Shown piece by piece: positions 16,368 through 63,989 of a stretch of DNA of 64,000 nt (positions within the stretch are counted from its first letter, which is position 1; each line of letters starts with the position of its first letter). Source of the DNA: Escherichia phage wV7; the sequence record NC_019505.1; one strand, 5' to 3'. A program made the position numbers and the translations under genes. The notes beneath the pieces were generated by a model. The model ran no database searches and was not told the DNA's origin. It saw only the letters and a program-made list of their open reading frames with translations.

Positions 16368-16371
16368 CAAT

Positions 16372-16389
16372 GGGGACCGAAAGGTCCCC
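16372..16389. terminator. Hairpin GGGGACC-GAAA-GGTCCCC between convergent gene 54 and the alt block
   Basis: Perfect 7-bp stem and GNRA loop with flanking A/T runs. Confidence 0.65.
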
Positions 16390-16395
16390 ATATTT

Positions 16396-16686
16396 TTATT
16401 TACGGAATGAAATAAAAGCAGCAACTGAAGCAACAGAGGTTTCTTCAATATAAACCTCAATTTTTACCGGAGCTTCTGACTCAAATTTACCTGTTACTAC
16501 ACCTTGGAAAATACTTTCAGTCTGTTCTGGCTTTGAAAAATTTTCAGAAGGAAAAATTCCGAACTTTTTATCTGTTCCAAAAATTTTGATAAATTCATCG
16601 TAAACTGCTTCATTGAAAGCGTTATCAGCGGGAATAACGCCTTCAACGACGAGTTCTTGACCTAAAAAGCGCAAAGAAGATTTCAT
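16396..16686 (-). CDS. Hypothetical protein (alt.-3 position)
   Basis: 96 aa ORF with its own upstream early promoter. Confidence 0.6.
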   Translation of the reverse strand: MKSSLRFLGQELVVEGVIPADNAFNEAVYDEFIKIFGTDKKFGIFPSENFSKPEQTESIFQGVVTGKFESEAPVKIEVYIEETSVASVAAFISFRK

Positions 16687-16717
16687 TTTGTGTTCCTCAT
16701 GTTATGTCAGTAAGACT

Positions 16718-16747
16718 ACTATAACACAACATGAGGGACTTGTAAAC
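16718..16747 (-). promoter_or_regulatory. Early promoter (GTTTACA, 17 nt, TATAGT) inside a leader inverted repeat
   Basis: Minus strand: gTTTACAagtccctcatgttgtgtTATAGTAgtcttactgacataacatgaggaacacaaaATG. Confidence 0.6.
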
Positions 16748-18804
16748 TACATTTTGAACTTTTTAGACATTCCGTTGATGTTAACCAAAGAAGCTAAGAT
16801 TTGAGAAACTTCGTTTTCCTCTTCTTTTGATTCTTCTACAAGGAATTGATTAAATCCAGCCATTGGACGAACTTCACCAGTTTCCATTAGATGGTCGCCA
16901 TCATATACTGATTCTTCTAATTGTTCAGAAGGAGGAACGATTGTACCTTCGATTAGATACTTGTTATAAGCAGTTTCTTTCATAAAGTAAGTACTTACTT
17001 TATTAATCTTCAGTAAAATTCCACGTGGTAGAATAACTTCAGCTTCTGATGGAAATCCTGACAAATGACCTGGAACGATAACTTTAACTCGTTCAGCTCC
17101 TTTAATTACCATACCCACGCTAGTTTCAGCATCTTCATTAGCATATGTAGAATGACTACCCATATGCATCAAATCTTCTGCATCAACGGAACCTTCTCCT
17201 TCACCAGAAAATACTGCTCCGGAATTATCTAAGGCCATATAATTTTTACCATACTCACCAAAGATATTTGGTTTAAGTGATGTCGATACGAAGTTCTTGA
17301 AATAGAACATTTTATTTTCAATGTTATGACGCAAAGTTTTAAAAGTAACTTCTTGTCCACGGTAAAGTGTAGTTCCTGGAGGAAGAACTGAACCTTTAGC
17401 GAATGCAGAATCCAGCGTCTCAATATGTTTAATAGCTCGTTCCATATATTCTTCACGTGTAGAATCAGGTTTACCTAAAAGGAATGAGTTCATTTCAACA
17501 TACGAATCTGCGCAATAATCTTCAATTACATCAGACTCAGCCTGAGTCAATCCTTTTGGAGTTACTTCAGTGCTTGCATATTCATACGCCTGAGCAGCGG
17601 ATTCATCAATTAATTTATAAATGCCATTCATGACAAATTGAATAATAGCTGTCTTTTCATCTGGCGTAGCTTTAGAACCTTTAACTAAATCATTGACAAT
17701 TTTCTTAATAACATCAAAGCTATTAGAAATATTAATGTCAGCAAGATCGCTTAAAATTTTATCAGTTTTATAATCAAAAAATTCTTTATTCTTTAAATAT
17801 TCTTGAGAACTTTGATATGTTATATCGCTCTGCAACTTGATAGATGGATCACGTAAACGTGCATGGGCTAATGCAATATGATTTCGGAAGCTTTCTAGTT
17901 CATAATCGTTAGATTTAAAACGAGAAGCACTTCTCATACCACCGATAGCTCCTTTGCTGAAGTTTGAACCAATCTGAATAACGCCAGAGTTCATTGGTCC
18001 TTCTGCTTTATATACCGGAACTTTAGATTCAAACTCTTGATATTTCTTAGCAGCGAAGCTATCACCCTGAAGTGAAGCATCAACAGTAGAATATTGAGCT
18101 TGTGCTGCTAATCGACGGCTAATTTTAGTTTTCTGAATAACAGCTTGATCCGTACGCTTATCATTTTCTAAAGCAATAGAAGCAGCAACTGCGACAGCTT
18201 TAGGAACAGCATTACCTGTTTTAACGTCTACATAAACATCACCAACCTTTGATTCAACTTTTGTGAATAACTCAGTTGAAATAGGAGGTACACCTGGAAT
18301 GTCTTCTAAATTGGCATTTTTACGGTAAACCATAATATATGCATATTTCTTATCATAGTCCCAGATTTCCTTTAAAAGAACATATCGACCTGCTCCTTTA
18401 GTACGTACTAAACGGTCAGCAATAACTTGCATTTGACGAGCAGCGCCGTTTGTTTTACTTTTTAGTACGCGGAATAGGCATGCATCAATTTTATACTGTT
18501 TCATTGTTTGAAGAGCAGTATCAAAAACCGCATTAATGACGCCAATTGGATTTCCACCCAAGTTTTTAAGCTTAACTAACGATAATTTCTCGTTGACGCC
18601 TATCATTACGATATGCATCATTTTGTCGCCTGGCTTAACGTTTTTATTCGTATCACCGCCAGAGGTGTATGTACAAAATCTAAATCCAGGAAGCACGCTT
18701 TCTTCACCGGCTTGAATAGCAAAAATTTGTGGTATTTTATGCTTAGGATTTAAGTTAACAACCGGCGCCGAAGCGCCGTCAAATAATTCTGTAATAAGTT
18801 CCAT
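16747..18804 (-). CDS. Alt-like mono-ADP-ribosyltransferase, second tandem paralog (685 aa)
   Basis: N-terminus MELITELFD..., CTYTSGGDTN, YVLLKE.WDYDKKYAYI; C-terminal R...STS...EAEVILPRG motif set. Confidence 0.8.
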   Translation of the reverse strand: MELITELFDGASAPVVNLNPKHKIPQIFAIQAGEESVLPGFRFCTYTSGGDTNKNVKPGDKMMHIVMIGVNEKLSLVKLKNLGGNPIGVINAVFDTALQTMKQYKIDACLFRVLKSKTNGAARQMQVIADRLVRTKGAGRYVLLKEIWDYDKKYAYIMVYRKNANLEDIPGVPPISTELFTKVESKVGDVYVDVKTGNAVPKAVAVAASIALENDKRTDQAVIQKTKISRRLAAQAQYSTVDASLQGDSFAAKKYQEFESKVPVYKAEGPMNSGVIQIGSNFSKGAIGGMRSASRFKSNDYELESFRNHIALAHARLRDPSIKLQSDITYQSSQEYLKNKEFFDYKTDKILSDLADINISNSFDVIKKIVNDLVKGSKATPDEKTAIIQFVMNGIYKLIDESAAQAYEYASTEVTPKGLTQAESDVIEDYCADSYVEMNSFLLGKPDSTREEYMERAIKHIETLDSAFAKGSVLPPGTTLYRGQEVTFKTLRHNIENKMFYFKNFVSTSLKPNIFGEYGKNYMALDNSGAVFSGEGEGSVDAEDLMHMGSHSTYANEDAETSVGMVIKGAERVKVIVPGHLSGFPSEAEVILPRGILLKINKVSTYFMKETAYNKYLIEGTIVPPSEQLEESVYDGDHLMETGEVRPMAGFNQFLVEESKEEENEVSQILASLVNINGMSKKFKM

Positions 18805-18807
18805 GAT

Positions 18808-20904
18808 TTATCCTTGAACGAACTTGTAAGGCATGTTTGTAATATCTATGCAAGACGCAATAATTCCAAGAGATGATTCTACTTTCTGTTTAACATTTGA
18901 TGAAACAAATGATGCAAAGTCAACTCTGTCTTCTATTTCAATATCACCTGTCATTGCAACCAATTCACCAGTTTCCATTAAATGGTCTCCGTCATAGATT
19001 ACCGATTCGGTGAGCTCTTCCGTGGTCATAACTTCAGCTTGAATGAGTTTTGTATTATTAGATGTTGTTCCGTCATTATTAGAAGCATCAGTTATTTTAT
19101 TAACTTTGACCATCAATCCACGCGGTAGAATAACTTCAGCTTCTGTTGCTATTCCGAGACTTCCTGGATATACAACATTAACTTTATGAGCTCCATCAAT
19201 TGCCCATCCTATTTGAACTTTAACGTATTCAGGATTTTCTTTATACGCTCTTATTTCGTTTGGATTAATAGTTATTCCTTCTTCATTTTTATCAACTGTT
19301 AATTCATTGCGAGCTTCTGGTTCTAAAAGACCAATACCAGCATGTGTGATTCCAAAACGTCCAAAAATGATAGGAGTTAAAGAAGTAGATACAAAATTTC
19401 TGAAGTAGAACACTTTATTTTTAACTAACGCTTCATATATAGGAGCAGTCATACTTTGAGCACGATAAACTGTGATGCCTTCCGGTATGCGGTCACCATT
19501 TTCAAAAGCTGAATCTAAGTTATTTATAGCAGATTCAATTTCTTTTTCACTCATTACATCATATCGTTCTGGATTGTAACGACCTAAAAGAAGATTATTG
19601 ATGTCAGTATATCCTGAACCGCAATATTCTCTAATGCCACGCTTTTGTGATGGAGTATATTTAGAACCATCGCGGGCAATAGTAATATCAATCATTGGAC
19701 CAGCACCAATTCCAGAAAAACTGTAAATCATTCGTTTGAGGAATTTAGTTTTTGCTGCGTTCCAGGAATTTTTAGTTATTTCTTCCCAGACTTCATCTGG
19801 TTGTCCTTTACGATTTTTATTATGATTAGCAAGCCATTTATCTTTATAATCTTCAAAGAATTGATTTACAGCTGCTGCGTATTTCTCTAAACATTTTATT
19901 GAAGTAGTTGGTTCATTTTTAATTGCATTAAAAATTACTTCTTTAATTTTTTCTGAAACTTCACCGACTTGACTCATTGGAAAGAATTTATAATCATAGT
20001 GAAGTTCATCTGCCGTTCCTTCAGCAATAATTTTTGCTGCCTTTGTTTTAGAAGCTAATGAATTAATTCCAATTTTCATTTCTTCTGCTTCGGGAATTAA
20101 AGGTGCAGTAGCTGGTTTATTAAAATTAGCTGCTGTAGATTCATACTTCTGGAATAATTCACTTTCAAATCTAGAAGATTCCAATGACTGACTTTGTGCA
20201 ATTGCTCTACGGGAAATTTTAACTTTAACGATTACGGCTTGGTCAGAACGTTTATCATTTTCTTGTGCAATAGATGCAGCAATTGCCTCATTTTTGGTTA
20301 CTTGAGCTCCAGTATCTTTATTGATATAAACATCACCGACCTTCGATTCAACTTTAGTAAAGAGCTCGGTGCTAATTTCTGGAACTCCTGGAATGTCTTC
20401 TAGTGATACATTTTTACGATGTATAAGAATATATGCATACTTTTTATCGTAATCCCAGAGTTCCTTAAGAAGGACGTATCTGCCACCTGAACGACTACGG
20501 ATAAGTCTATCAGCAATAACTTGAATTTGTCGAGCTTGGCCAGCAGTTTTAGACTTAAGAATACGAAGCATACAAGCATCAATTTTATATTGACGCATTG
20601 TTTGCATTGCAACAGTAAAAACTGAATTGATATAATTAATTGGGCTTGGACCAAGACCTTTTAATTTAGCAATTGAACCTTTAGCAGTTAATGTAAAAGG
20701 AACAATGTGCATCATTTTGTCGCCCATTTTTAAATCGCGATTAGTATCACCTCCAGATGTATATGTACATAAACGAAAGCCTGGTTGTTCAATTGCATCA
20801 TCAACATGAACTGAAAAAATTTGTGGTATTTTCTTCTTTGGATTTAAGTTTGTAATCGGAAGAGTAGTATCTTCGTCAAATAATTCTGTAATAAGTTCCA
20901 TCAT
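18808..20904 (-). CDS. alt: Alt, packaged ADP-ribosyltransferase (698 aa)
   Basis: Same architecture as the downstream paralog, with YRAQ / FVSTSL / TEAEVILPRG; late promoter immediately upstream. Confidence 0.85.
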   Translation of the reverse strand: MMELITELFDEDTTLPITNLNPKKKIPQIFSVHVDDAIEQPGFRLCTYTSGGDTNRDLKMGDKMMHIVPFTLTAKGSIAKLKGLGPSPINYINSVFTVAMQTMRQYKIDACMLRILKSKTAGQARQIQVIADRLIRSRSGGRYVLLKELWDYDKKYAYILIHRKNVSLEDIPGVPEISTELFTKVESKVGDVYINKDTGAQVTKNEAIAASIAQENDKRSDQAVIVKVKISRRAIAQSQSLESSRFESELFQKYESTAANFNKPATAPLIPEAEEMKIGINSLASKTKAAKIIAEGTADELHYDYKFFPMSQVGEVSEKIKEVIFNAIKNEPTTSIKCLEKYAAAVNQFFEDYKDKWLANHNKNRKGQPDEVWEEITKNSWNAAKTKFLKRMIYSFSGIGAGPMIDITIARDGSKYTPSQKRGIREYCGSGYTDINNLLLGRYNPERYDVMSEKEIESAINNLDSAFENGDRIPEGITVYRAQSMTAPIYEALVKNKVFYFRNFVSTSLTPIIFGRFGITHAGIGLLEPEARNELTVDKNEEGITINPNEIRAYKENPEYVKVQIGWAIDGAHKVNVVYPGSLGIATEAEVILPRGLMVKVNKITDASNNDGTTSNNTKLIQAEVMTTEELTESVIYDGDHLMETGELVAMTGDIEIEDRVDFASFVSSNVKQKVESSLGIIASCIDITNMPYKFVQG

Positions 20905-20924: not shown

Positions 20925-20952
20925 TATTTATAAAATTAAAGGCCCGAAGGCC
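20925..20952 (-). promoter_or_regulatory. Late promoter TATAAATA (minus strand) upstream of alt, adjacent to hairpin GGCC-CGAA-GGCC
   Basis: Plus-strand TATTTATA about 20 nt upstream of the alt start; hairpin just beyond. Confidence 0.55.
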
Positions 20953-20953
20953 T

Positions 20954-21142
20954 TTAGTAATCTAGTGGTAAGAGAGTACGATATATTTCAAACTTTGGTC
21001 CTTTTTCATAGGCATCAAATGTTTCTGTAAATTTATTGTAAGCATATGCATCTACAAATTCGAGAATGACTTGTGATACAGAAGTAGAAACATCTCCACC
21101 TTCTTTTTGAGCAATGACAATTGTTTCTAAGTAAGCTTTCAT
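20954..21142 (-). CDS. Hypothetical small protein between ligase and alt
   Basis: 62 aa ORF; start overlaps the gene 30 stop. Confidence 0.5.
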   Translation of the reverse strand: MKAYLETIVIAQKEGGDVSTSVSQVILEFVDAYAYNKFTETFDAYEKGPKFEIYRTLLPLDY

Positions 21143-24840: not shown

Positions 24841-24879
24841 GTATTTTCCTCAGTAAGGGGCCGAAGCCCCTGTTTTATT

Positions 24880-25245
24880 TTAAATATCAAATTCGTTAAG
24901 AACTACATCAAAGATTGCTTCAAGATGCTCAGGTTTAGCTCTGTTACTCAGAATATGACGAATCCAAGTTTTAACCAAAAGCTTGCGATTATCACCATTC
25001 CAGCAAGGATGAGTCCCTAAATCGCGTTGACGAAAATCATCATCCAGAGCGATTTTGAAGTTTGAACCTTCCATTGTGATTGAAACCGTGATGCCATTTT
25101 CAAATCGCATATAAACGTAGTTAGGAGTCATATACTGTTCAATTTCGCATACTGATCCATTTTGATGTTTCCAAAGGCAGATAGTATCAATAGAACCTGC
25201 AATACCATTAGAAACATATTTACGTTCAAAGTTGATGTAGTTCAT
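24880..25245 (-). CDS. Hypothetical protein
   Basis: 121 aa ORF. Confidence 0.55.
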   Translation of the reverse strand: MNYINFERKYVSNGIAGSIDTICLWKHQNGSVCEIEQYMTPNYVYMRFENGITVSITMEGSNFKIALDDDFRQRDLGTHPCWNGDNRKLLVKTWIRHILSNRAKPEHLEAIFDVVLNEFDI

Positions 25246-25313
25246 TTTTATTCTCCGAGATGTTTAATTGCGGTACAGGTATATAATATCATATCCTGTA
25301 CCAAAGTAAACAA

Positions 25314-25646
25314 TTATTTTACTACTTTCCAGTGCTTCATGTCAAGTTTACCAACTTTTTTCATCTTCTCAATCAAACGTTCGGCACGTTGGCGAGCTGT
25401 AACATAATACCATTCGCCTAATTCATTTTGTTCAATTTTTCCAACGATTACTGTATTCAATTCATAAATCCAACCAGTAAAGAAATTATGAACTTGAATT
25501 GTAAAGGTGAAATCTGTTCCCATACCTTCTGTTGTTTCTACTTCAATAATATCACCTTCAACTGCCATTAAGAACCACATAGTTTCATCATATTTACCAT
25601 TGAAGCATTTAGTTTTAACTGCAGCGTTCAGATTAATCGTTTTCAT
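25314..25646 (-). CDS. Hypothetical protein
   Basis: 110 aa ORF preceded by an early promoter and ribosome-binding site. Confidence 0.55.
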   Translation of the reverse strand: MKTINLNAAVKTKCFNGKYDETMWFLMAVEGDIIEVETTEGMGTDFTFTIQVHNFFTGWIYELNTVIVGKIEQNELGEWYYVTARQRAERLIEKMKKVGKLDMKHWKVVK

Positions 25647-25673
25647 TTTATTCTCCTTTGTTTGTGTAAGATA

Positions 25674-25751
25674 ATACTATCACAAAGGAACCATACTGTA
25701 AACAACTTTGTGCAATCTTTGGAAAATAAAAAAGGACTCCCGAAGGAGTCC
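25674..25751 (-). promoter_or_regulatory. Terminator hairpin GGACTCC-CGAA-GGAGTCC followed by an early promoter (GTTTACA, 17 nt, TAGTAT)
   Basis: Minus strand: hairpin, ttttttattttcc..., gTTTACAgtatggttcctttgtgaTAGTAT, then the ribosome-binding site of ORF 25314..25646. Confidence 0.55.
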
Positions 25752-28472: not shown

Positions 28473-28708
28473 AGTACGCCATACACCCTTTGTGCTTCAA
28501 CTAATCCATCAAAATCTAATTTAAGATGCGATATTTGATCGCCATCACCTGGATTCACAATTACTAATACTGAACGAGGAGTTTCAGTAATAACACGAAC
28601 CGATGTTTCAGGAAATCGTTCAGAAACCTTATTTACCAATTCCTGTGCAAATAGCTTAACTTTTTCTTGGAATTCTTTAACAGTAATCGGTTTTTCACTT
28701 AGCAGCAT
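28469..28708 (-). CDS. Hypothetical protein (cd.2 position)
   Basis: 79 aa ORF. Confidence 0.5.
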   Translation of the reverse strand: MLLSEKPITVKEFQEKVKLFAQELVNKVSERFPETSVRVITETPRSVLVIVNPGDGDQISHLKLDFDGLVEAQRVYGVL

Positions 28709-28770
28709 TTTGTTTTCCTCATTTGTTTTGGTAGAGCTATAATATCACAACTCTACCGTAAAGTAAACTA

Positions 28771-29249: not shown

Positions 29250-30639
<1,390 letters not shown>

Positions 30640-30643
<4 letters not shown>

Positions 30644-30870
30644 TTATTTTTCTCAACCAATGATTGAATATAATCATGCAGGTCTTTAGATGCTTTACCC
30701 CACTTATTTTGATATTCATTTTTGAGATTAGCGCGTGATTGAGCTAATAAAACATCATTAGTTGGAGGTAAAGATTCTAATCGTTGAATCTGTCGTCCAT
30801 AAATCATTGCAGCCATCTCGGATTCATAAATTAATCCTTTTAGATGTTCAAATTGATACCATGAAATCAT
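30640..30870 (-). CDS. Hypothetical protein
   Basis: 76 aa ORF. Confidence 0.5.
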
Positions 30871-31166
30871 TTACATTTATCCTCTTTTAGCTCTTGACGA
30901 TAATAACATATCATAGTTTTCTGGTCATGTACATATCGTTTTACATCATTAAGCCAAATACGAAATTCCTGAGAATCTTCAAATGGCATACCTACCCAAG
31001 CTTTACCATCAATAACTTTAACTTGCCAAGATAGTTTAGCTTCGTCATATGACTTTATTTGCACAGGCCAATTAGGATGAACTGTTTCTTTCTTTACTTC
31101 TAGAGGCTTTGTCGAACAACCAACTAGAAGACCAATAGATAATATTACTGCAGATAATTTAATCAT
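30867..31166 (-). CDS. Outer-membrane lipoprotein, probable o-spanin (pseT.2 position)
   Basis: Signal peptide plus lipobox (LLVGCST); start overlaps the upstream gene. Confidence 0.65.
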   Translation of the reverse strand: MIKLSAVILSIGLLVGCSTKPLEVKKETVHPNWPVQIKSYDEAKLSWQVKVIDGKAWVGMPFEDSQEFRIWLNDVKRYVHDQKTMICYYRQELKEDKCK

Positions 31167-31516
31167 TTAGAAAGGTCCTGGATGTCTTCTGCGAACTTGT
31201 TGAAGGAGTTGTTGATTTGTTTTTCAACCAATCCTGGCTTACGAGCCACCACATCCGCCTTCTTTGCATCTTTGCGCAGTTTTTCATTTTCACGCTCAAT
31301 AGCAGCAATCGCCTCACGATTTTTATTATTCATCGCATCAATATAATTATACTGAATTCGCAAATTATTTAATGCTAAGGCGTTTTCATTGGCCGTTTTT
31401 GTAATTTCTACAACAGACGTTTCTAATCTTTCTACCTTATTTTTTAAAATAATAGATGTTCCGCCAAATGCTATTACAAGTAATAGCAATCCAGCTGTAA
31501 AATTACTTACATGCAT
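31163..31516 (-). CDS. Probable i-spanin (pseT.3 position)
   Basis: N-terminal transmembrane helix followed by a coiled-coil-like periplasmic domain. Confidence 0.65.
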   Translation of the reverse strand: MHVSNFTAGLLLLVIAFGGTSIILKNKVERLETSVVEITKTANENALALNNLRIQYNYIDAMNNKNREAIAAIERENEKLRKDAKKADVVARKPGLVEKQINNSFNKFAEDIQDLSK

Positions 31517-32013
31517 AAAGTTTTAATAACCTCTATAATATCGTCTTGAGAAAGACCGTTAATTAAAATATGATGTTCAGCCGGAGATTTAGAAATTTTA
31601 AAGCACGCCGCAACATCTTCTGCCATATCCGATGCGCTACGATTTGGATTACTAATTCCAAGACGATGCTTTCCTGTCAAAGGATTAACGATGATATAGC
31701 ATTTGCAGCTATTGATATGAACATTAGGTTGAGTCTGATTAATAAACACTTCACAATCATACTTAGCGAGTTGATTTTCTAAAAAGACTTTCATCTCCTC
31801 AACCGCATCAGGAAGCATATCACGGGCTTGCTCAAGACGACGATTTCGATATTCTTTAATGGTCGTTTTCCGCTTGACTTGCTTAGCTAAATCTTTCTTA
31901 AGATCGGTGATATATCCAACTCGACGATTTCCTTTGAATACAGAAATCCCATCTGTAGTATCACCGTATGCTTCAACGACCATTTCAGTAGTAATAAGCT
32001 GCAAATCCATCAT
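31507..32013 (-). CDS. alc: Alc, inhibitor of host transcription on cytosine-containing DNA
   Basis: 168 aa, MMDLQLITTEMVVEAYGDTTDG...; size and position as T4 alc. Confidence 0.8.
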   Translation of the reverse strand: MMDLQLITTEMVVEAYGDTTDGISVFKGNRRVGYITDLKKDLAKQVKRKTTIKEYRNRRLEQARDMLPDAVEEMKVFLENQLAKYDCEVFINQTQPNVHINSCKCYIIVNPLTGKHRLGISNPNRSASDMAEDVAACFKISKSPAEHHILINGLSQDDIIEVIKTLCM

Positions 32014-32041
32014 AAAGTCCTCATGTTATGTCAGTAAGATT

Positions 32042-32071
32042 ACTATAACACAACACGAGGGACTTGTAAAC
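32042..32071 (-). promoter_or_regulatory. Early promoter (GTTTACA, 17 nt, TATAGT); near-identical copy of the 16718-16747 element
   Basis: Minus strand: gTTTACAagtccctcgtgttgtgtTATAGTAatcttactgacataacatgaggactttATG. Confidence 0.6.
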
Positions 32072-32074
32072 AGC

Positions 32075-33686
<1,612 letters not shown>

Positions 33687-33689
33687 TCC

Positions 33690-34868
33690 TTAAAAGTATT
33701 TTTTAAAACTCATCATAACTTTATCATCAACATCATTATCAATCTGTGCAACAAGATAAGATGACAGTTCTACTTCTTGCGGCGCGGATTGAACATTATC
33801 AGAATTAAGGTATTCACGAATCCAAGGATATGGATGTTTAACCGGAGCATCGGTAATCGGGCATGGAAGACCACACTGTTTCATACGAGATACAGTTAAG
33901 TAATCAATAAAGCTCCACATGCTATTTGTATTTAATCCAGGAACATCGCCATCTTTAAATAAATGAACTGCCCAATCTTTTTCTTGGCGGTTAACTTCCA
34001 TGAAAATATCAACTGCTTCTTGTTCACACTCTTTGGCAATTTTAACCCATTCATCACCATCAGTGCCAAGTTGAAGTTGACGAATAATATATTGTGTACC
34101 TTTAAGATGAAGCTGCTCATCACGTGCAATGAACTTCATAATCTTGGCATTACCTTCCATGATTTCCATGTTTTTATGGAAGTTAAAGGTACACGCAAAT
34201 GATACATAAAAACGAATAGCTTCTAATGCATTAATAACGTGCAGACAGAGATAAAGCGACTTCATCAGGTCTCGTTTACATTCTTCCAAATGAGTGAGAC
34301 TGTTTGAATATGCTTCTAAATCATATTCATTTTCAGCAAAATAACTAAAGTTTTCTTTGGCGTTTTCCCAAATACGTGTCTTGTCCAGAACATCATCATA
34401 ATAACGACCAATAGATTCAGCACGTTTCATGATAGCTTTATCTAATACAATCTCATCAAATACCTTTGACGGATCAGCATAAAGATTTCGCATAATATGA
34501 GTGTATGAACGACTGTGAATAGTTTCACTAAAAGTCCATGTAGCAACCCATGTATCAAGGCTTGGGTCTGAAATCAATGACATAAGTACAGCAGACGGTG
34601 CACGACCCTGAATGCTATCTAGAAGTGATTGATACTTCAGATTATTAGTAAAAATATTCTGCTGATATTGAGGAAGCTTATTAAACTGTGCAGCATCCAT
34701 CATTAAGTTTACTTCTTCAGGACGCCAGAAAAATGACAACTGCTTTTCGGTTAAATCTTCAAAAACTTTATGACGTTGAATATCATAACGCGCAATACCA
34801 AGACCTGAACCAAAAAACATAGGTTCTTTTAAAACATCAACTGGATTTGTATTAAAAACTGTGCTCAT
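33690..34868 (-). CDS. nrdB: Ribonucleotide reductase small subunit, uninterrupted
   Basis: 392 aa continuous ORF with ferritin-like motifs; no intervening sequence. Confidence 0.92.
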   Translation of the reverse strand: MSTVFNTNPVDVLKEPMFFGSGLGIARYDIQRHKVFEDLTEKQLSFFWRPEEVNLMMDAAQFNKLPQYQQNIFTNNLKYQSLLDSIQGRAPSAVLMSLISDPSLDTWVATWTFSETIHSRSYTHIMRNLYADPSKVFDEIVLDKAIMKRAESIGRYYDDVLDKTRIWENAKENFSYFAENEYDLEAYSNSLTHLEECKRDLMKSLYLCLHVINALEAIRFYVSFACTFNFHKNMEIMEGNAKIMKFIARDEQLHLKGTQYIIRQLQLGTDGDEWVKIAKECEQEAVDIFMEVNRQEKDWAVHLFKDGDVPGLNTNSMWSFIDYLTVSRMKQCGLPCPITDAPVKHPYPWIREYLNSDNVQSAPQEVELSSYLVAQIDNDVDDKVMMSFKKYF

Positions 34869-40394: not shown

Positions 40395-40634
40395 TCACGC
40401 TTTCTTAGCGACTTTCCAGTCAGCTTTAAATTGGTCAACGTCAGAGTGATGAATCCAGAAACCAGATGAGCTACCATCTTCATAAAGAGGACAACCATCA
40501 CACTCATCTTCCCATCCCATATCACGTAAAAGATGTTCAGCTTTTTCAATGAGTTCAGAATCTTTACCGATGATATTAAAATACCATTTACCTCTAACTT
40601 CTGAATCTTTGATGCTCTGGCGTTGTAATCTCAT
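40395..40634 (-). CDS. Hypothetical early protein (start at ATG after promoter)
   Basis: Track ORF 40395..40724 reads through the promoter; ribosome-binding site plus ATG at about 40634. Confidence 0.5.
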   Translation of the reverse strand: MRLQRQSIKDSEVRGKWYFNIIGKDSELIEKAEHLLRDMGWEDECDGCPLYEDGSSSGFWIHHSDVDQFKADWKVAKKA

Positions 40635-40660
40635 TTTATTCTCCTCAAGTTGATAGGGTA

Positions 40661-40690
40661 ATAGTATCACACTACTACCCTGTTGTAAAC
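40661..40690 (-). promoter_or_regulatory. Early promoter (GTTTACA, 17 nt, TACTAT)
   Basis: Minus strand: tTTTACAacagggtagtagtgtgaTACTATTaccctatcaacttgaggagaataaaATG. Confidence 0.55.
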
Positions 40691-45039: not shown

Positions 45040-48000
45040 ATGGCCGAGATTAAAAGAAAGTTCAGAGCAGAAGACGGTCTGGACGCAGGTGGTGATAAAA
45101 TAATCAACGTAGCTTTAGCTGATCGTACCGTAGGAACTGACGGTGTAAACGTTGATTACTTAATTCAAGAAAACACAGTTCAACAATATGATCCAACTCG
45201 TGGATATTTAAAAGATTTTGTAATCATTTATGATAACCGCTTTTGGGCTGCTATAAATGATATTCCAAAACCAGCAGGAGCTTTTAATAGCGTACGATGG
45301 AGAGCGTTACGCACTGATGCAAACTGGACAACTGTTTCGTCAGGACCCTATCAATTAAAATCAGGCGAATCGATTTCAGTTAACACCGCAGCGGGTAATG
45401 ACATTACATTTACTTTGCCATCTTCTCCAATTGATGGTGATACTATCGTTCTCCAAGATATTGGAGGAAAACCTGGAGTTAACCAGGTTTTAATTACAGC
45501 TCCGGTACAAAGCATTGTAAACTTTAGAGGTCAACAAGTACGCTCAGTACTAATGACTCATCCAAAATCACAGATAGTTTTAATTTTTAGTAATCGTCTG
45601 TGGCAAATGTATGTTGCTGATTATAGCAGAGAAGCGGCAGTTGTAACACCGGCAAGTCTTTATCAAGCGCAATCAAACGATTTTATCGTGCGTAGATTTA
45701 CTTCTGCTTCAGCAATTAATATTAAACTTCCTAGATTTGCTAATCATGGGGATATTATTAATTTTGTTGATTTAGATAAATTAAATCCGTTATATCATAC
45801 TATCGTTACTACATACGATGAAACTACTTCTGTACAAGAAGTTGGAACTCATTCCATTGAAGGTCGTACATCTATTGATGGTTTCTTGATGTTTGATGAT
45901 AATGAGAAATTGTGGAGATTGTTTGACGGGGATAGTAAAGCACGTTTACGCATTATAACGACTAATTCTAATATTCGTCCAAATGAAGAAGTCATGGTAT
46001 TTGGCGCGAATAATGGAACAACCCAAACAATTGAACTTCAGCTTCCAACTGATATTTCTATCGGTGATACTGTTAAGATTTCCATGAATTATATGAGAAA
46101 AGGACAAACAGTTAAAATCAAAGCTGCCGGTGAAGATAAAATTGCTTCTTCAGTTCAATTGCTGCAATTTCCAAAACGTTCAGAATACCCACCTGAAACT
46201 AAATGGGTGACTGTTCAAGAATTAGTTTTTAATGGCGAAACCAATTATGTTCCAGTTTTACAGCTTGCTTATATCGAAGATTCTGACGGAAAATATTGGG
46301 TTGTACAGCAAAACGTTCCAACTGTAGAAAGAGTAGACTCTTTAAATAATTCTACTAGAGCAAGATTAGGGGTAATTGCTTTAGCTACACAAGCTCAAGC
46401 TAATGCTGATTTAGAAAATTCTCCACAAAAAGAATTGGCAATTACTCCAGAAACGTTAGCTAATCGTACTGCTACAGAAACTCGTAGAGGTATTGCAAGA
46501 ATAGCAACTACTGCTCAAGTTAACCAGGATACTACATTCTCTTTTGCTGATGATATTATCATCACTCCTAAAAAGCTGAATGAAAGAACAGCTACTGAAA
46601 CTCGTAGGGGTGTCGCTGAAATTGCTACGCAACAGGAAACTAATACAGGTACTGATGATACGACAATCATCACTCCTAAAAAGCTTCAAGCTCGCCAAGG
46701 TTCTGAATCATTATCTGGTATTGTAACTTTTGTATCTACTGCAGGTGCTACTCCAGCTTCTAGCCGTGAATTAAATGGTACGAATGTTTATAATAAAAAC
46801 ACTAATAATTTAGTTGTTTCACCTAAAGCTTTGGATCAGTATAAAGCTACTCCAACACAGCAAGGTGCAGTAATTTTAGCAGTTGAAAGTGAAGTAATTG
46901 CTGGTCAAAGTCAAGAAGGATGGGCAAATGCTGTTGTAACTCCAGAAACGTTACACAAAAAGACATCAACTGATGGAAGAATTGGATTAATTGAAATTGC
47001 TACGCAAAGTGAAGTTAATACAGGAACTGATTATACTCGTGCAGTCACTCCTAAAACTTTAAATGACCGTAGAGCAACTGAAAGTTTAAGTGGTATAGCT
47101 GAAATTGCTACACAAGTTGAATTCGACGCGGGCGTCGACGATACTCGTATCTCTACACCATTAAAAATTAAAACCAGATTTAATAGTACTGATCGTACTT
47201 CTGTTGTTGCTCTATCTGGATTAGTTGAATCAGGAACTCTCTGGGACCATTATACCCTTAATATTCTTGAAGCAAACGAGACACAACGTGGTACACTTCG
47301 TGTAGCTACACAAGTCGAAGCTGCTGCAGGAACATTAGATAATGTTTTAATAACTCCTAAAAAGCTTTTAGGTACTAAATCTACTGAAGCGCAAGAAGGT
47401 GTTATTAAAGTTGCAACACAAACCGAAACTGTTGCTGGTACATCATCTAATACTGCTGTATCTCCAAAGAATTTAAAATGGATCGTGCAGAGTGAACCTA
47501 CTTGGGCAGCTACTACTACAGTAAGAGGCTTTGTTAAAACTTCATCTGGTTCAATTACATTCGTTGGTAATGATACAGCCGGTTCTACTCAGGACTTAGA
47601 GCTATACGAGAAAAATAGCTATGCAGTATCACCATACGAATTAAACCGTGTATTAGCAAATTATTTGCCATTAAAAGCAAAAGCTGCAGATAGTAATTTA
47701 TTGGATGGTCTAGATTCATCTCAGTTCATTCGTAGGGATATTGCACAGACGGTTAATGGTTCACTAACCTTAACCCAACAAACGAATCTGAGTGCCCCTC
47801 TTGTATCATCTAGTACTGCTACGTTTGGTGGATCAGTTTCGGCAAATAGTACATTAACTATTTCTAATACTGGAACGGCAACTCGTCTGATTTTTGAGAA
47901 AGGACCTCAAACTGGAACAAACCCAGCCCAAACGATGACTGTTAGAGTGTGGGGAAATCAATTTAGTGGGGAATTAGATACAACACGTTCTACCGTATTT

Positions 48001-61291: not shown

Positions 61292-61391
61292 AGTAAACGT
61301 TTAATACATCAATCATTAAAACGATTGGGAATATACTCAAAACTATTAGTATTATAACTACATTCCATATAGCTTTAACAATCTTTTTCAT
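61278..61391 (-). CDS. Small membrane peptide (~37 aa from MKKIVKAIW)
   Basis: Track ORF reads through the promoter; real start follows ribosome-binding site ggaggaacagaaaATG. Confidence 0.45.
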   Translation of the reverse strand: MKKIVKAIWNVVIILIVLSIFPIVLMIDVLNVYFGFM

Positions 61392-61419
61392 TTTCTGTTC
61401 CTCCGTAGTTGATAGGGTA

Positions 61420-61449
61420 ATAGTACCACGGAAGAACAGTCTTGTAAAC
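61420..61449 (-). promoter_or_regulatory. Early promoter (GTTTACA, 17 nt, TACTAT)
   Basis: Minus strand: gTTTACAagactgttcttccgtggTACTATTaccctatcaactacggaggaacagaaaATG. Confidence 0.55.
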
Positions 61450-61925: not shown

Positions 61926-61955
61926 ATATTACCACGGTCCTTGTGGTATGTAAAC
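61926..61955 (-). promoter_or_regulatory. Early promoter (GTTTACA, 17 nt, TAATAT)
   Basis: Minus strand: aaaattttcacaaaacggTTTACAtaccacaaggaccgtggTAATATAcaactatcaactacggagga. Confidence 0.55.
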
Positions 61956-62791: not shown

Positions 62792-62810
62792 AATTCACCT
62801 TAAAACAAAA

Positions 62811-62822
62811 GGGCCGAAGCCC
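62811..62822 (-). other. GGGC-TTCG-GCCC hairpin (minus-strand reading) upstream of ORF 62462..62791
   Basis: Same 22-nt element as at 63039-63050. Confidence 0.55.
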
Positions 62823-62827
62823 TTATT

Positions 62828-63022
62828 TTATTTGAATTGTGCAATTCTTTTCTCTAAACAATCTGCATAAGATTTCATTGAGATGAACTGTGAAAGCAGC
62901 AGTTCTTGCTCAACTGCACTAACCGTTAGAAACTTTGCGCTTTCTAAAAATTTGCTCAGTGCATTAATTTTGAGCATTAATTGATCGTATTCTTCTTTTA
63001 CTCGTGCTTGATAACCTAACAT
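62828..63022 (-). CDS. Hypothetical small protein bracketed by identical hairpins
   Basis: 64 aa ORF with ribosome-binding site. Confidence 0.5.
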   Translation of the reverse strand: MLGYQARVKEEYDQLMLKINALSKFLESAKFLTVSAVEQELLLSQFISMKSYADCLEKRIAQFK

Positions 63023-63038
63023 AATTTTCCTTAGTTAA

Positions 63039-63050
63039 GGGCCGAAGCCC
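63039..63050 (-). other. GGGC-TTCG-GCCC hairpin immediately 3' of rIIB
   Basis: Abuts the rIIB stop codon. Confidence 0.55.
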
Positions 63051-63989
63051 TTATTTAAATTGTTCAGTAACGTCTTCAATTACTTCGTATTGGCAGGTAC
63101 GCATTTTAGCGTCGTTGTAATCAATCGGAATTGATACTACATCACGAGGATGAACTTTAACTTTTACAACTCGGCTGGTTGAACCACCGAAGTGACGAAT
63201 ATAAGATTTAGAACACACATGCAGACCACGAGAACAAGTTTGTGTATCATCGTCATTCACACGAGTACGCGGCATTTTAACTACTTTACCAGGACTGTTA
63301 TCAAAGGTATTTGAGTGACAGTCAAAGTAATTATTGCGAACTACTTTCCAAGCATAGAAGTAACCATCTTCTGTAATTTCAATATCGTTTGCTACCAAGA
63401 AATCAAAAAGTCGAGATACCGCTTTCTGGCTTGGGTTTTCCAGCAGATTTTCCAAGAACGGAAAATAAAATTCAAAGTTTTCGCCTTTTTCCATCGAATC
63501 AAGAATACGATCAACCAAACCAGACCGCAATTCAATATTTTGATAGAATAAGCTTCCACCTTCAATTCGAACATCGCCGGAAATATATTTTTCAACAGCG
63601 CGACGAACATTAATTTTTTGTGCCGCTTCTTCCAGCTTATCCGCTACAAGCAGATTGAGAATTTCCTGGAAGTTTGAATGAGTATTAGGTGTTGCATTAT
63701 AAGTTACACCATCGACAGTAATCGAAATGAATTTTTTAGATGCATTCCAAATAATGTCAGATTTAGTAACTGGAGCAATAACTGCATCGCTATTAACTTT
63801 AACTGTAATATCACCGCTAATAGTAACTTTAGAGCGTTTAGCTTCTTCAGCATTTTTCAAAACACGACGGATTGTATCAACCGATACACCTTGCCAATCA
63901 GCCAATTCCTGCTGAGTATAATTACCGCTTGAATACAGTTTAACAATTTCAGCTTGTTCGTTTTTGGTCAGGCATTTAATATTGTACAT
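63051..63989 (-). CDS. rIIB: rIIB protein
   Basis: 312 aa, MYNIKCLTKNEQAEIVKLYSSGNYTQQELADWQGVSVDTIRR...; size as recalled for T4 rIIB. Confidence 0.9.
   Translation of the reverse strand: MYNIKCLTKNEQAEIVKLYSSGNYTQQELADWQGVSVDTIRRVLKNAEEAKRSKVTISGDITVKVNSDAVIAPVTKSDIIWNASKKFISITVDGVTYNATPNTHSNFQEILNLLVADKLEEAAQKINVRRAVEKYISGDVRIEGGSLFYQNIELRSGLVDRILDSMEKGENFEFYFPFLENLLENPSQKAVSRLFDFLVANDIEITEDGYFYAWKVVRNNYFDCHSNTFDNSPGKVVKMPRTRVNDDDTQTCSRGLHVCSKSYIRHFGGSTSRVVKVKVHPRDVVSIPIDYNDAKMRTCQYEVIEDVTEQFK

Follow-up and report, generated by a model that had tools for sequence, protein, structure and literature searches.

An early promoter nested in a Shine-Dalgarno-masking hairpin before alt.-3 and alc of a T4-like phage: a candidate for promoter-dependent translation

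Background

Why should an early promoter of a T4-like phage lie inside an inverted repeat, one arm of which carries the Shine-Dalgarno (SD) sequence of the gene served by that promoter, and why should almost the same arrangement precede two genes of one genome? The question arises from an earlier note on the stretch of DNA analysed here (64 kb, below called the window). It described two near-identical promoter and leader copies and suggested that RNA reading in from upstream would fold the ribosome-binding site (RBS) into a hairpin, whereas RNA started at the promoter itself would not.

For temporal gene control T4 serves as the reference system, and a translational control with the promoter placed inside a hairpin was reportedly described for it by McPheeters in 1986. 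Two reviews from 2010 report RBS-sequestering hairpins for e, soc, 49, 25/26, I-TevI-III, segB, and mobE (PMC3014915, PMC2988022), and the hairpin of gene e is known to cut lysozyme synthesis 100-fold (PMC3014915). In T4 reviews RBS-masking hairpins are listed only for late genes and homing endonucleases, and the shut-down of early protein synthesis in T4 is described as incompletely understood (PMC3014915). The earlier note regarded the promoter-in-hairpin logic as known for a few T4 genes and was not aware of it for the two genes considered here. This agrees with the sources consulted: the reviews list other genes, and the searchable literature yielded neither an earlier statement on alc or alt.-3 hairpins, nor experiments on translation, start sites, or read-through RNA for this pair, nor a T4 start-site map.

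Cassette copies and their anatomy

Over the 1 kb around the cassette, identity amounts to 100% with E. coli O157 typing phage 7 and to 99.5% with RB51 and RB68, which places the window in Tequatrovirus, as a close relative of T4. All relevant genes of this T4-like phage lie on the minus strand, so the plus-strand coordinates of the earlier note have to be taken as the reverse complement; all cassette and gene features below are on the minus strand.

According to a pattern search, a 54-nt cassette occurs twice in the window, at 16694-16747 (copy A) and at 32018-32071 (copy B), with 2 mismatches in 54 positions (96% identity), while the number of matches expected by chance is 0. No third copy is present in the 64 kb at up to 3 mismatches. 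Copy A is situated between the stop of the 685-aa alt gene and the 96-aa alt.-3 ORF (16396-16686, ATG at 16686-16684), and copy B between rnlA (gene 63) and the 168-aa alc ORF (31507-32013), for which the first ATG is at 32013 and the T4 annotation uses the second one, at 32010. These gene identities (alt, alt.-3, rnlA, and alc) are given consistently by the T4 annotation and tblastn. alc is the host transcription shut-off gene. T4 also has both copies of the cassette, and its pair differs by 1 nt. The identity between copies A and B has sharp borders, formed by GTTTACA at one end and by GAGGA at the opposite end. As for the three or four differences over about 60 nt that had been reported before, this count stands only if the unrelated spacers between SD and ATG are included, and does not stand for the 54-nt core with its 2 mismatches.

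Read along the minus strand, copy A consists of GTTTACA AGTCCCTCATGTTGTGT TATAGT AGTCTTACTGACATAACATGAGGA, followed by ACACAAA ATG, and copy B of GTTTACA AGTCCCTCGTGTTGTGT TATAGT AATCTTACTGACATAACATGAGGA, followed by CTTT ATG. Scanning for promoters identifies TTTACA and TATAGT at both sites, 17 nt apart and with a TG-extended −10 box; the promoter score equals 10/12 in both cases and is among the best matches per region scanned. The sequence upstream of the promoter is AT-rich (AAAAAGTTCAAAATGTA in copy A and TTTTTTGAAAAATTATAAAAAATTTAT in copy B). In copy A the −35 element GTTTACA occupies 16741-16747 (TTTACA at 16746-16741), with its G also closing the alt stop codon TAG (16749-16747), and the −10 box TATAGT occupies 16718-16723, preceded by TGT. 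In copy B the −35 element lies at 32065-32071, next to the rnlA stop codon TAA at 32077-32075, and the TG-extended −10 box at 32042-32047. Under the sigma-70 spacing rule a transcript starts 7 nt after the −10 box, which predicts the A at 16711 (copy A) and the A at 32035 (copy B) as start sites. The late-promoter motif TATAAATA is absent from both cassettes, and the promoter found there is of the sigma-70 early type.

The inverted repeat is formed by CCUCAUGUUGUGUU and GACAUAACAUGAGG, which pair over 14 bp; beyond these lie a 2-nt bulge and an inner helix of 4 bp. Its 5′ arm (CCTCATGTTGTGTT at 16723-16736 in copy A, CCTCGTGTTGTGTT at 32047-32060 in copy B) falls within the promoter spacer, which is not transcribed from the promoter itself, and the last base of this arm is the first T of the −10 box. 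Its 3′ arm is GACATAACATGAGG in both copies (16695-16708 and 32019-32032, respectively) and ends in the SD sequence GAGG (16698-16695 and 32022-32019), located 8 nt from the ATG of alt.-3 and 5 nt from that of alc. The −10 box and the predicted start are placed between the two arms; in copy A the −10 box coincides with the bulge and the inner helix. CCTC within the 5′ arm of copy A mimics an anti-SD sequence. The corresponding CCUCGUG of copy B contains a G that forms a G.U pair in place of the A-U pair of copy A, so that the pairing is preserved. In T4, the alt.-2 ORF spans the 5′ arm and has its stop codon inside the −10 box; if translated, it would open the hairpin.

The anatomy claimed before is confirmed here: two near-identical copies, the promoter elements and their spacing, and a downstream arm that holds the SD of alt.-3 and of alc. 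The inverted repeat across the −10 box and the SD proved longer than had been stated.

Transcription units around the cassettes

Copy A belongs to a minus-strand unit in which a late promoter (TATAAATA, 20925-20932), located directly after a terminator at 20937-20956, is followed by alt paralog 1 (20904-18808), alt paralog 2 (18804-16747), cassette A, and alt.-3. The first terminator downstream of this promoter is a bidirectional one at 16391-16370, past alt.-3. The terminator scan, which detected these two sites (16370-16391 and 20937-20956), reports no terminator-like site at or before either cassette and, for copy B, none anywhere in 30500-34500. Such a layout leaves little alternative to RNA that reads through copy A, and the late promoter unit of alt at 20932-20925 would be its source; both the existence and the abundance of read-through RNA are judged here from the arrangement of the units.

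In T4 omics data alt.-3 and alc are classified as early-RNA/early-protein, alt as late, and rnlA as early-RNA/late-protein (PMC9697503 and its supplement). These classes fit an own early promoter for alt.-3 and alc with no co-expression with the upstream gene, although they do not by themselves prove a translational block.

Predicted folding of read-through and promoter-started RNA

The folding comparison proposed in the earlier note was run for both cassettes. In RNA that carries both arms, the hairpin alone has a predicted energy of −22.4 kcal/mol for copy A and −22.0 kcal/mol for copy B (z-scores −5.5 and −6.5, respectively), and none of 300 shuffled sequences is equally stable. The SD is paired in the predicted hairpins of both cassettes and the AUG remains outside the stem. 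When read-through contexts of about 170 nt are folded, the hairpin is kept and the SD stays fully paired, with a probability of being unpaired close to 0. The absence of a stable fold in read-through RNA had been named as the outcome that would speak against the idea; a stable fold is what is predicted.

RNA started 7 nt past the −10 box lacks the 5′ arm and shows no significant predicted structure (z-scores +1.5 for copy A and +1.0 for copy B). Its SD is unpaired with a probability of 0.3-0.7 in copy A and 0.6-0.7 in copy B. The predicted cost of opening the ribosome site amounts to 16.7 kcal/mol (copy A) and 21.4 kcal/mol (copy B) in read-through RNA vs 6.5 and 3.9 kcal/mol, respectively, in promoter-started RNA. 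Both halves of the suggestion, burial of the SD in one RNA and escape from the fold in the other, are therefore borne out at the level of prediction.

As a benchmark, validated T4 cases were folded in the same way, which gives −14.9 kcal/mol for e, −10.9 for soc, −20.7 for I-TevI, −19.5 for 49, and −25.5 for segB. The values for the cassette genes are −26.9 (alc) and −23.3 (alt.-3). In predicted stability the cassette hairpins therefore match or exceed the validated ones (−23 to −27 kcal/mol vs −11 to −25 kcal/mol). A search against Rfam 15 at the gathering threshold reports 0 matches in the whole window.

Comparison upstream of alc

To compare the cassette across lineages, 32 distinct rnlA-alc junction sequences from about 8 Tevenvirinae genera were collected from GenBank phages and IMG/VR, covering Tequatro-, Gelderland-, Karam-, Jiaoda-, Dhaka-, Kanagawa-, Winkler-, Mosig- and other viruses. 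GTTTACA follows immediately past the rnlA stop in nearly all of them. In 22 of the 32 junctions the SD is fully paired to bases before the start site in the minimum free energy structure, with probability 1.0. The arms themselves are lineage-specific, for example CCUCAUGUUGUG/CAUAACAUGAGG, UCUCCAUUUGGUU/AACCAAAUGGAGA, UCCUCAUCAAGGUG/CACCAACUGAUGAGGA, and CCUCUCAUUUUU/AAAAAUGAGAGG.

RNAalifold applied to 23 alc-upstream sequences pooled from all lineages yields no consensus structure, because the register of the stem varies between genera. The pooled alignment was replaced by a sub-alignment of 11 sequences that share one register and by an alignment-free test of cognate vs non-cognate duplexes. 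In the sub-alignment 93.5% of the cells are paired, compared with 39-46% when the partners are displaced by 1-3 columns. Compensatory double changes occur in four pairs (UA/CG, CG/UA, AU/GC, and GC/UA/CG; 13 cells), and 0 of 500 shuffles match the observed pairing and covariation values. Two of the covarying pairs are the SD itself, with CUCC opposite GGAG and CCUC opposite GAGG. According to the duplex test, spacer and cognate leader form a duplex of −16.7 kcal/mol on average, vs −8.6 kcal/mol for leaders from other lineages, and for 22 of the 32 junction sequences no foreign leader is as good as the own one. These comparisons indicate that the pairing upstream of alc is under selection and that spacer and leader co-evolve across genera.

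Masking of the SD at alc is not universal. Mosigvirus and two further lineages have just a small spacer hairpin with an unmasked SD, in three lineages the stem stops 3-5 nt short of the SD, and the VR25 group, with an additional ORF, lacks the promoter. The feature is thus dispensable in some lineages.

Two further candidates were considered for the arms. An operator for a sequence-specific repressor was rejected, since the arms differ in every promoter and lineage and would offer a repressor no common recognition sequence. A target of RegB seemed less likely, the SD of the cassette being GAGG and not GGAG.

The same design at other early promoters

In the window, 12 promoters of the GTTTAC type precede an ORF. 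Apart from the two cassette copies, an SD-masking stem is present at the promoter at 61449 (15 bp, −22.7 kcal/mol) and, in weaker form, at the one at 25703. For T4, 37 promoter-gene pairs were analysed by scoring the untranscribed part of each promoter against the 18 nt before the start codon. A duplex of −12 kcal/mol or below between promoter and SD is found for 7 of the 37 pairs vs 1.2 expected from permuted partners, and 0 of 20000 permutations reach 7 pairs (p below 5e-5). These 7 genes are motB.2, denV, regB, nrdC.8, alc, alt.-3, and ndd.4, with modB, 30.8, and e.8 being borderline in the same scoring. When the sequence before the start site is paired with the whole leader, the 7 strongest duplexes in T4 belong to exactly the 7 SD-masking genes.

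As for regB, Mosigvirus and Dhakavirus keep the SD masking with other arm sequences, and the regB of Dhakavirus carries a cassette of the T4 denV type. In Karamvirus and Jiaodavirus the regB structure is composite: outer CUCC/GGAG pairs enclose a second, inner hairpin that spans the −10 box.

About half of the T4 early promoters have hairpins that span the −10 box. At dmd, mobD.2, ipI, motB, 30.7, and ipII such stems do not reach the SD, which weakens RBS masking as the sole reason for promoter hairpins. Since these hairpins leave the SD untouched, promoter hairpins may serve another, more general role.

Comparison at alt.-3 and origin of the second copy

Six other genera likewise have an early promoter past the alt stop, but it is different from the cassette: it has a small spacer hairpin (CAC-AAGGA-GTG) and the SD is untouched. 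The SD-masking design at alt.-3 is found in Tequatrovirus only, which makes copy A look like a transferred cassette. Within the phage collection the 54-nt cassette is restricted to close T4 relatives and occupies at most 2 places per genome. In Tequatrovirus the same A/G polymorphism of the 5′ arm (A-U or G.U) is observed at either locus, and in one metagenomic contig the two copies are 100% identical. Copy A also adjoins the variable alt / alt.-1 / alt.-2 region.

The near-identity of the copies is proposed to result from copying of the cassette between the loci, by recombination or gene conversion. We infer that the alt.-3 copy is a transferred alc-type cassette kept similar by gene conversion; copying from alc to alt.-3 within the Tequatrovirus lineage would be the most likely direction.

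Relation to known systems and alternative explanations

The cassette resembles the hairpins of T4 e, soc, 49, I-TevI, and segB in that a hairpin in upstream-initiated RNA pairs the SD, while an internal promoter between the arms drops the 5′ arm. In contrast, the e-type promoters are late (TATAAATA, gp55) and serve late genes, whereas the cassettes have a sigma-70 early promoter in front of early genes; the RNA to be silenced here would be a late or read-through one, and the effect on translation is a predicted one. According to the folding models the cassette would thus work like the e, soc, and I-TevI hairpins but lacks their combination of a late promoter with a late gene.

Structurally, the cassette belongs with promoter-stem-loop cassettes that were annotated in 1986 and named PeSL (promoter-early stem-loop) in 2010. 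PeSL cassettes are reported for T4-like phages, including the PST/T4 pair (Arbiol 2010, PMC2839356; Comeau 2014, PMC4122927). [quoted passage not shown] Unlike in PeSL, where the SD is a separate 3′ element, the SD of the cassette lies inside the 3′ arm of the stem, and while the RB49 stems consist of G/C tracts, the cassette stem is AU-rich and has no U-tail. In GenBank record X04567 (1986, T4 58.3-65.5 kb), inverted repeats C/C′ (denV) and D/D′ (ORF 61.9, i.e., regB) are labelled ‘put. stem-loop structure; pot. transcription terminator’. These share the imperfect inverted repeat around a potential −10 box and the RBS within the downstream repeat, but concern other genes with other arm sequences and are annotated as potential terminators of the upstream gene. 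Since their anatomy is identical, the architecture itself is old knowledge; the T4 scan performed here also puts denV and regB in one class with alc and alt.-3. As far as the searchable literature goes, what is new is the occurrence at alc and alt.-3 and the reading as promoter-dependent translation for early genes. The 1986 putative-terminator annotation, the presence of the design at no fewer than 7 T4 early promoters, and the apparent transfer of the alt.-3 copy had all been missed by the earlier note.

This history points to the best surviving alternative, in which the stem-loop acts on transcription or RNA ends (it terminates, attenuates, or protects upstream 3′ ends) and the SD falls into an arm through tight spacing. 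The X04567 labels for denV and regB favour it, as does the interpretation of the PeSL stem-loop as a terminator/attenuator and recombination site (PMC2839356, PMC4122927); the 2010 PeSL paper (PMC2839356) nowhere uses the word ‘translation’. A stem-loop from RB49 is reported to have lowered lacZ as much as the rrnB T1 terminator (PMC2839356, PMC4122927), and the many T4 early promoters with −10-spanning hairpins that exclude the SD fit this explanation too. An intrinsic terminator, however, was rejected: no U-tract follows the 3′ arm at either cassette, where the tail is AACACAAAAUG or ACUUUAUG, the stems are rich in AU and not in GC, and the scan that detected the real terminators at 16370-16391 and 20937-20956 has no match at either site. 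Compact spacing, moreover, leaves the covariation of 5′ arm and SD (CUCC-GGAG, CCUC-GAGG) unexplained, and among the long-range duplexes the strongest are precisely the SD-containing ones. An effect on transcription or RNA ends is thus considered unlikely as the main explanation, though it is the alternative to be taken most seriously.

A second alternative is that the inverted repeat acts as DNA, either as a substrate for recombination or gene conversion or as a modulator of promoter melting, with the RNA fold as a by-product. Movement or homogenisation of the cassette between the two loci is evident, cassettes have been exchanged between genes elsewhere (the Dhakavirus regB with the T4 denV-type cassette), and PeSL mini-circles have been shown in RB49. 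Strand asymmetry gives a divided picture. In T4-type stems 2-3 G.U pairs stabilise the sense RNA by up to 9 kcal/mol relative to the antisense one; the sense-vs-antisense stability test over all lineages is not significant (p 0.19), so that a DNA-level or strand-neutral constraint could operate outside Tequatrovirus. The strand test was therefore used to separate RNA-level from DNA-level selection for the T4-type cassette only, in which three G.U pairs would correspond to A.C mismatches in a cruciform or on the opposite strand. Recombination, in turn, requires identity between copies and not self-complementarity, whereas the alc arms vary by genus and yet stay complementary, as expected under selection for pairing; nor is there a DNA-level reason for consistent inclusion of the SD. 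A purely DNA-level role appears improbable on these grounds.

Slightly less probable again is translational coupling, in which a ribosome finishing alt or rnlA would melt the base of the stem or be placed by the SD, so that read-through RNA would yield the downstream protein only under translation of the upstream gene. In many lineages the upstream stop adjoins or overlaps the −35 box (TAG-TTTACA), CUCC/CCUC there lies 9-13 nt past the stop, under the footprint of the terminating ribosome, and T4 alt.-2 reads through the entire 5′ arm. In the window, however, the anti-SD of copy A begins 13 nt and that of copy B 18 nt past the first base of the stop codon, i.e., at or past the leading edge of a terminating ribosome, so the 14 + 4 bp would stay in place. 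The stop-to-arm distances in Karamvirus, Gelderlandvirus, and Jiaodavirus (14-17 nt) are likewise out of reach, and the combination of a late alt with an early alt.-3 protein speaks against co-expression. Finally, absence of any selected function, i.e., recent duplication of a promoter with a chance palindrome, is very hard to credit: two copies indeed give no independent evidence, being one sequence seen twice, but the z-scores (−5.5 and −6.5), the compensatory evolution at alc and regB, and the T4 enrichment (p below 5e-5) all speak against it.

Promoter-dependent translation as the preferred reading

The best reading of these results, held with moderate confidence and probably correct on the sequence evidence, is promoter-dependent translation of alt.-3 and alc through an SD-masking hairpin. 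Its support comes from the anatomy of the sequence and the folds predicted for it, from arms that co-evolve, and from the arrangement of the transcription units. Each cassette would represent a sigma-70 early promoter nested in an RNA hairpin. RNA initiated upstream, i.e., the late alt transcript in the case of alt.-3 and read-through from nrdB, denA, and rnlA in the case of alc, would carry both arms and fold into a hairpin of about 20 bp that buries the SD, leaving alt.-3 or alc untranslated. RNA from the own promoter would start in the loop, without the 5′ arm, and its open leader would be translated. As a result, alt.-3 and alc would be made only while early promoters fire and would be translationally insulated from the surrounding units. 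The logic would be that of e, soc, 49, and I-TevI with the temporal sign reversed.

A broader proposal can be put forward more tentatively. T4-like phages may possess a conserved ‘early-only’ class of genes (in T4 alc, alt.-3, regB, denV, motB.2, nrdC.8, and ndd.4), whose promoters hold the SD in a hairpin, whose read-through RNA, middle or late, is silent, and whose cassettes are mobile. If so, this class would mirror the hairpins of late genes and help to account for the abrupt drop in early protein synthesis; each unit, a promoter combined with a translational insulator, would be complete in itself and pass as a cassette from gene to gene.

Significance

Mutations in alt.-3, the gene downstream of copy A, let T4 evade the CmdTAC defence (PMC11618068). 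The inverted temporal sense, the covariation across genera, and the class of about 7 T4 genes together provide a clean, testable hypothesis, even though the logic is familiar and the sequence is present in T4 itself. If the block is real, the 54 nt would serve phage engineering as a compact part by which translation is tied to a single promoter, and the structures called terminators since 1986, along with part of the PeSL concept, would need reinterpretation. For the phages themselves, a real block would mean that immediate-early genes located inside longer middle or late units could remain early.

Other early promoters with inverted repeats

Besides the promoters of alc and alt.-3, a third early promoter whose hairpin would mask the Shine-Dalgarno (SD) sequence in read-through RNA is located at 61391-61449 (minus strand). 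Its 15-bp stem, in which CUGUUCUUCCGUGGU pairs with ACUACGGAGGAACAG, has a folding energy of −22.7 kcal/mol, and its arm sequences bear no relation to the alc cassette (the 54-nt promoter hairpin shared by alc and alt.-3). The gene behind it is a 37-aa ORF at the position of T4 ndd.4. Among the further early promoters of the GTTTAC type, the one at 25646-25703 (minus strand) also has an inverted repeat spanning the -10 box that masks its AAGGAG (−12 kcal/mol). Three others on the same strand (25245-25311, 28708-28768, and 40634-40690) carry -10-spanning inverted repeats with stems that stop short of the SD, and similar SD-free stems are present in the T4 promoters of dmd, mobD.2, ipI, motB, 30.7, and ipII.

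A small hairpin, CAC(C)-AAGGA(A/C/T)-(G)GTG, lies entirely within the promoter spacer and is common to many early promoters of several genera. Its instances include window 61926-61955 (minus strand), T4 positions 2458 and 50973, and comparison sequences L056-L061 at about 340-375; among its carriers are non-Tequatrovirus alt.-3 promoters, the Mosigvirus alc promoter, and the T4 rIIA.1 and nrdC.4 promoters. This hairpin looks like a conserved promoter-spacer motif.

Outside Tequatrovirus, cassettes appear to have been swapped from gene to gene. Dhakavirus CLBP2 (L076, 135-195) has upstream of regB the cassette found before denV in T4 (UCUCCUGUAG...CUACAGGAGA), and a Dhakavirus-like alc leader (L038) matches the leader of alt.-3 in Dhakavirus IME341 (L057) at all but the terminal bases of the compared stretches.

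Other repeats and structured elements

Direct-repeat families of 25-71 nt, spaced 108-681 nt apart, occupy 46382-47421 on the plus strand (TCACTCCTAAAAAGCT..., ...GAAATTGCTACGCAA) and resemble repeats within the coding sequence of a tail-fibre gene, which sits where T4 has gene 34. The GC-rich hairpin (A/G)GGGCCGAAGCCC(C/T), followed by T-rich sequence, occurs at 24843-24897, 62796-62850, and 63024-63061, and these sites look like copies of a single terminator. Rfam at the gathering threshold reports no match in the entire window (1-64000). Since td and nrdB, which have group I introns in T4, are both presumably located within this span, wV7 probably lacks introns in these genes.

The alt region

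Two full-length alt paralogs are arranged in tandem on the minus strand, at 20904-18808 (698 aa) and 18804-16747 (685 aa), whereas T4 has a single alt with remnants alt.-1 and alt.-2. Their identity is patchy, varying from 71 to 97%, with a repeat spacing of ~2094 nt (16747-20904). A late promoter, TATAAATA (20925-20932, minus strand), adjoins a terminator at 20937-20956.

In T4, the annotated alt.-2 ORF (L001 3066-3269, equal to T4 123065-123268) overlaps the alt.-3 cassette: it crosses the -35 box and the 5' arm, and its stop codon is the TAG within the -10 box (TA-TAG-T). Any translation of alt.-2 in T4 would therefore cause ribosomes to unwind the alt.-3 cassette hairpin.
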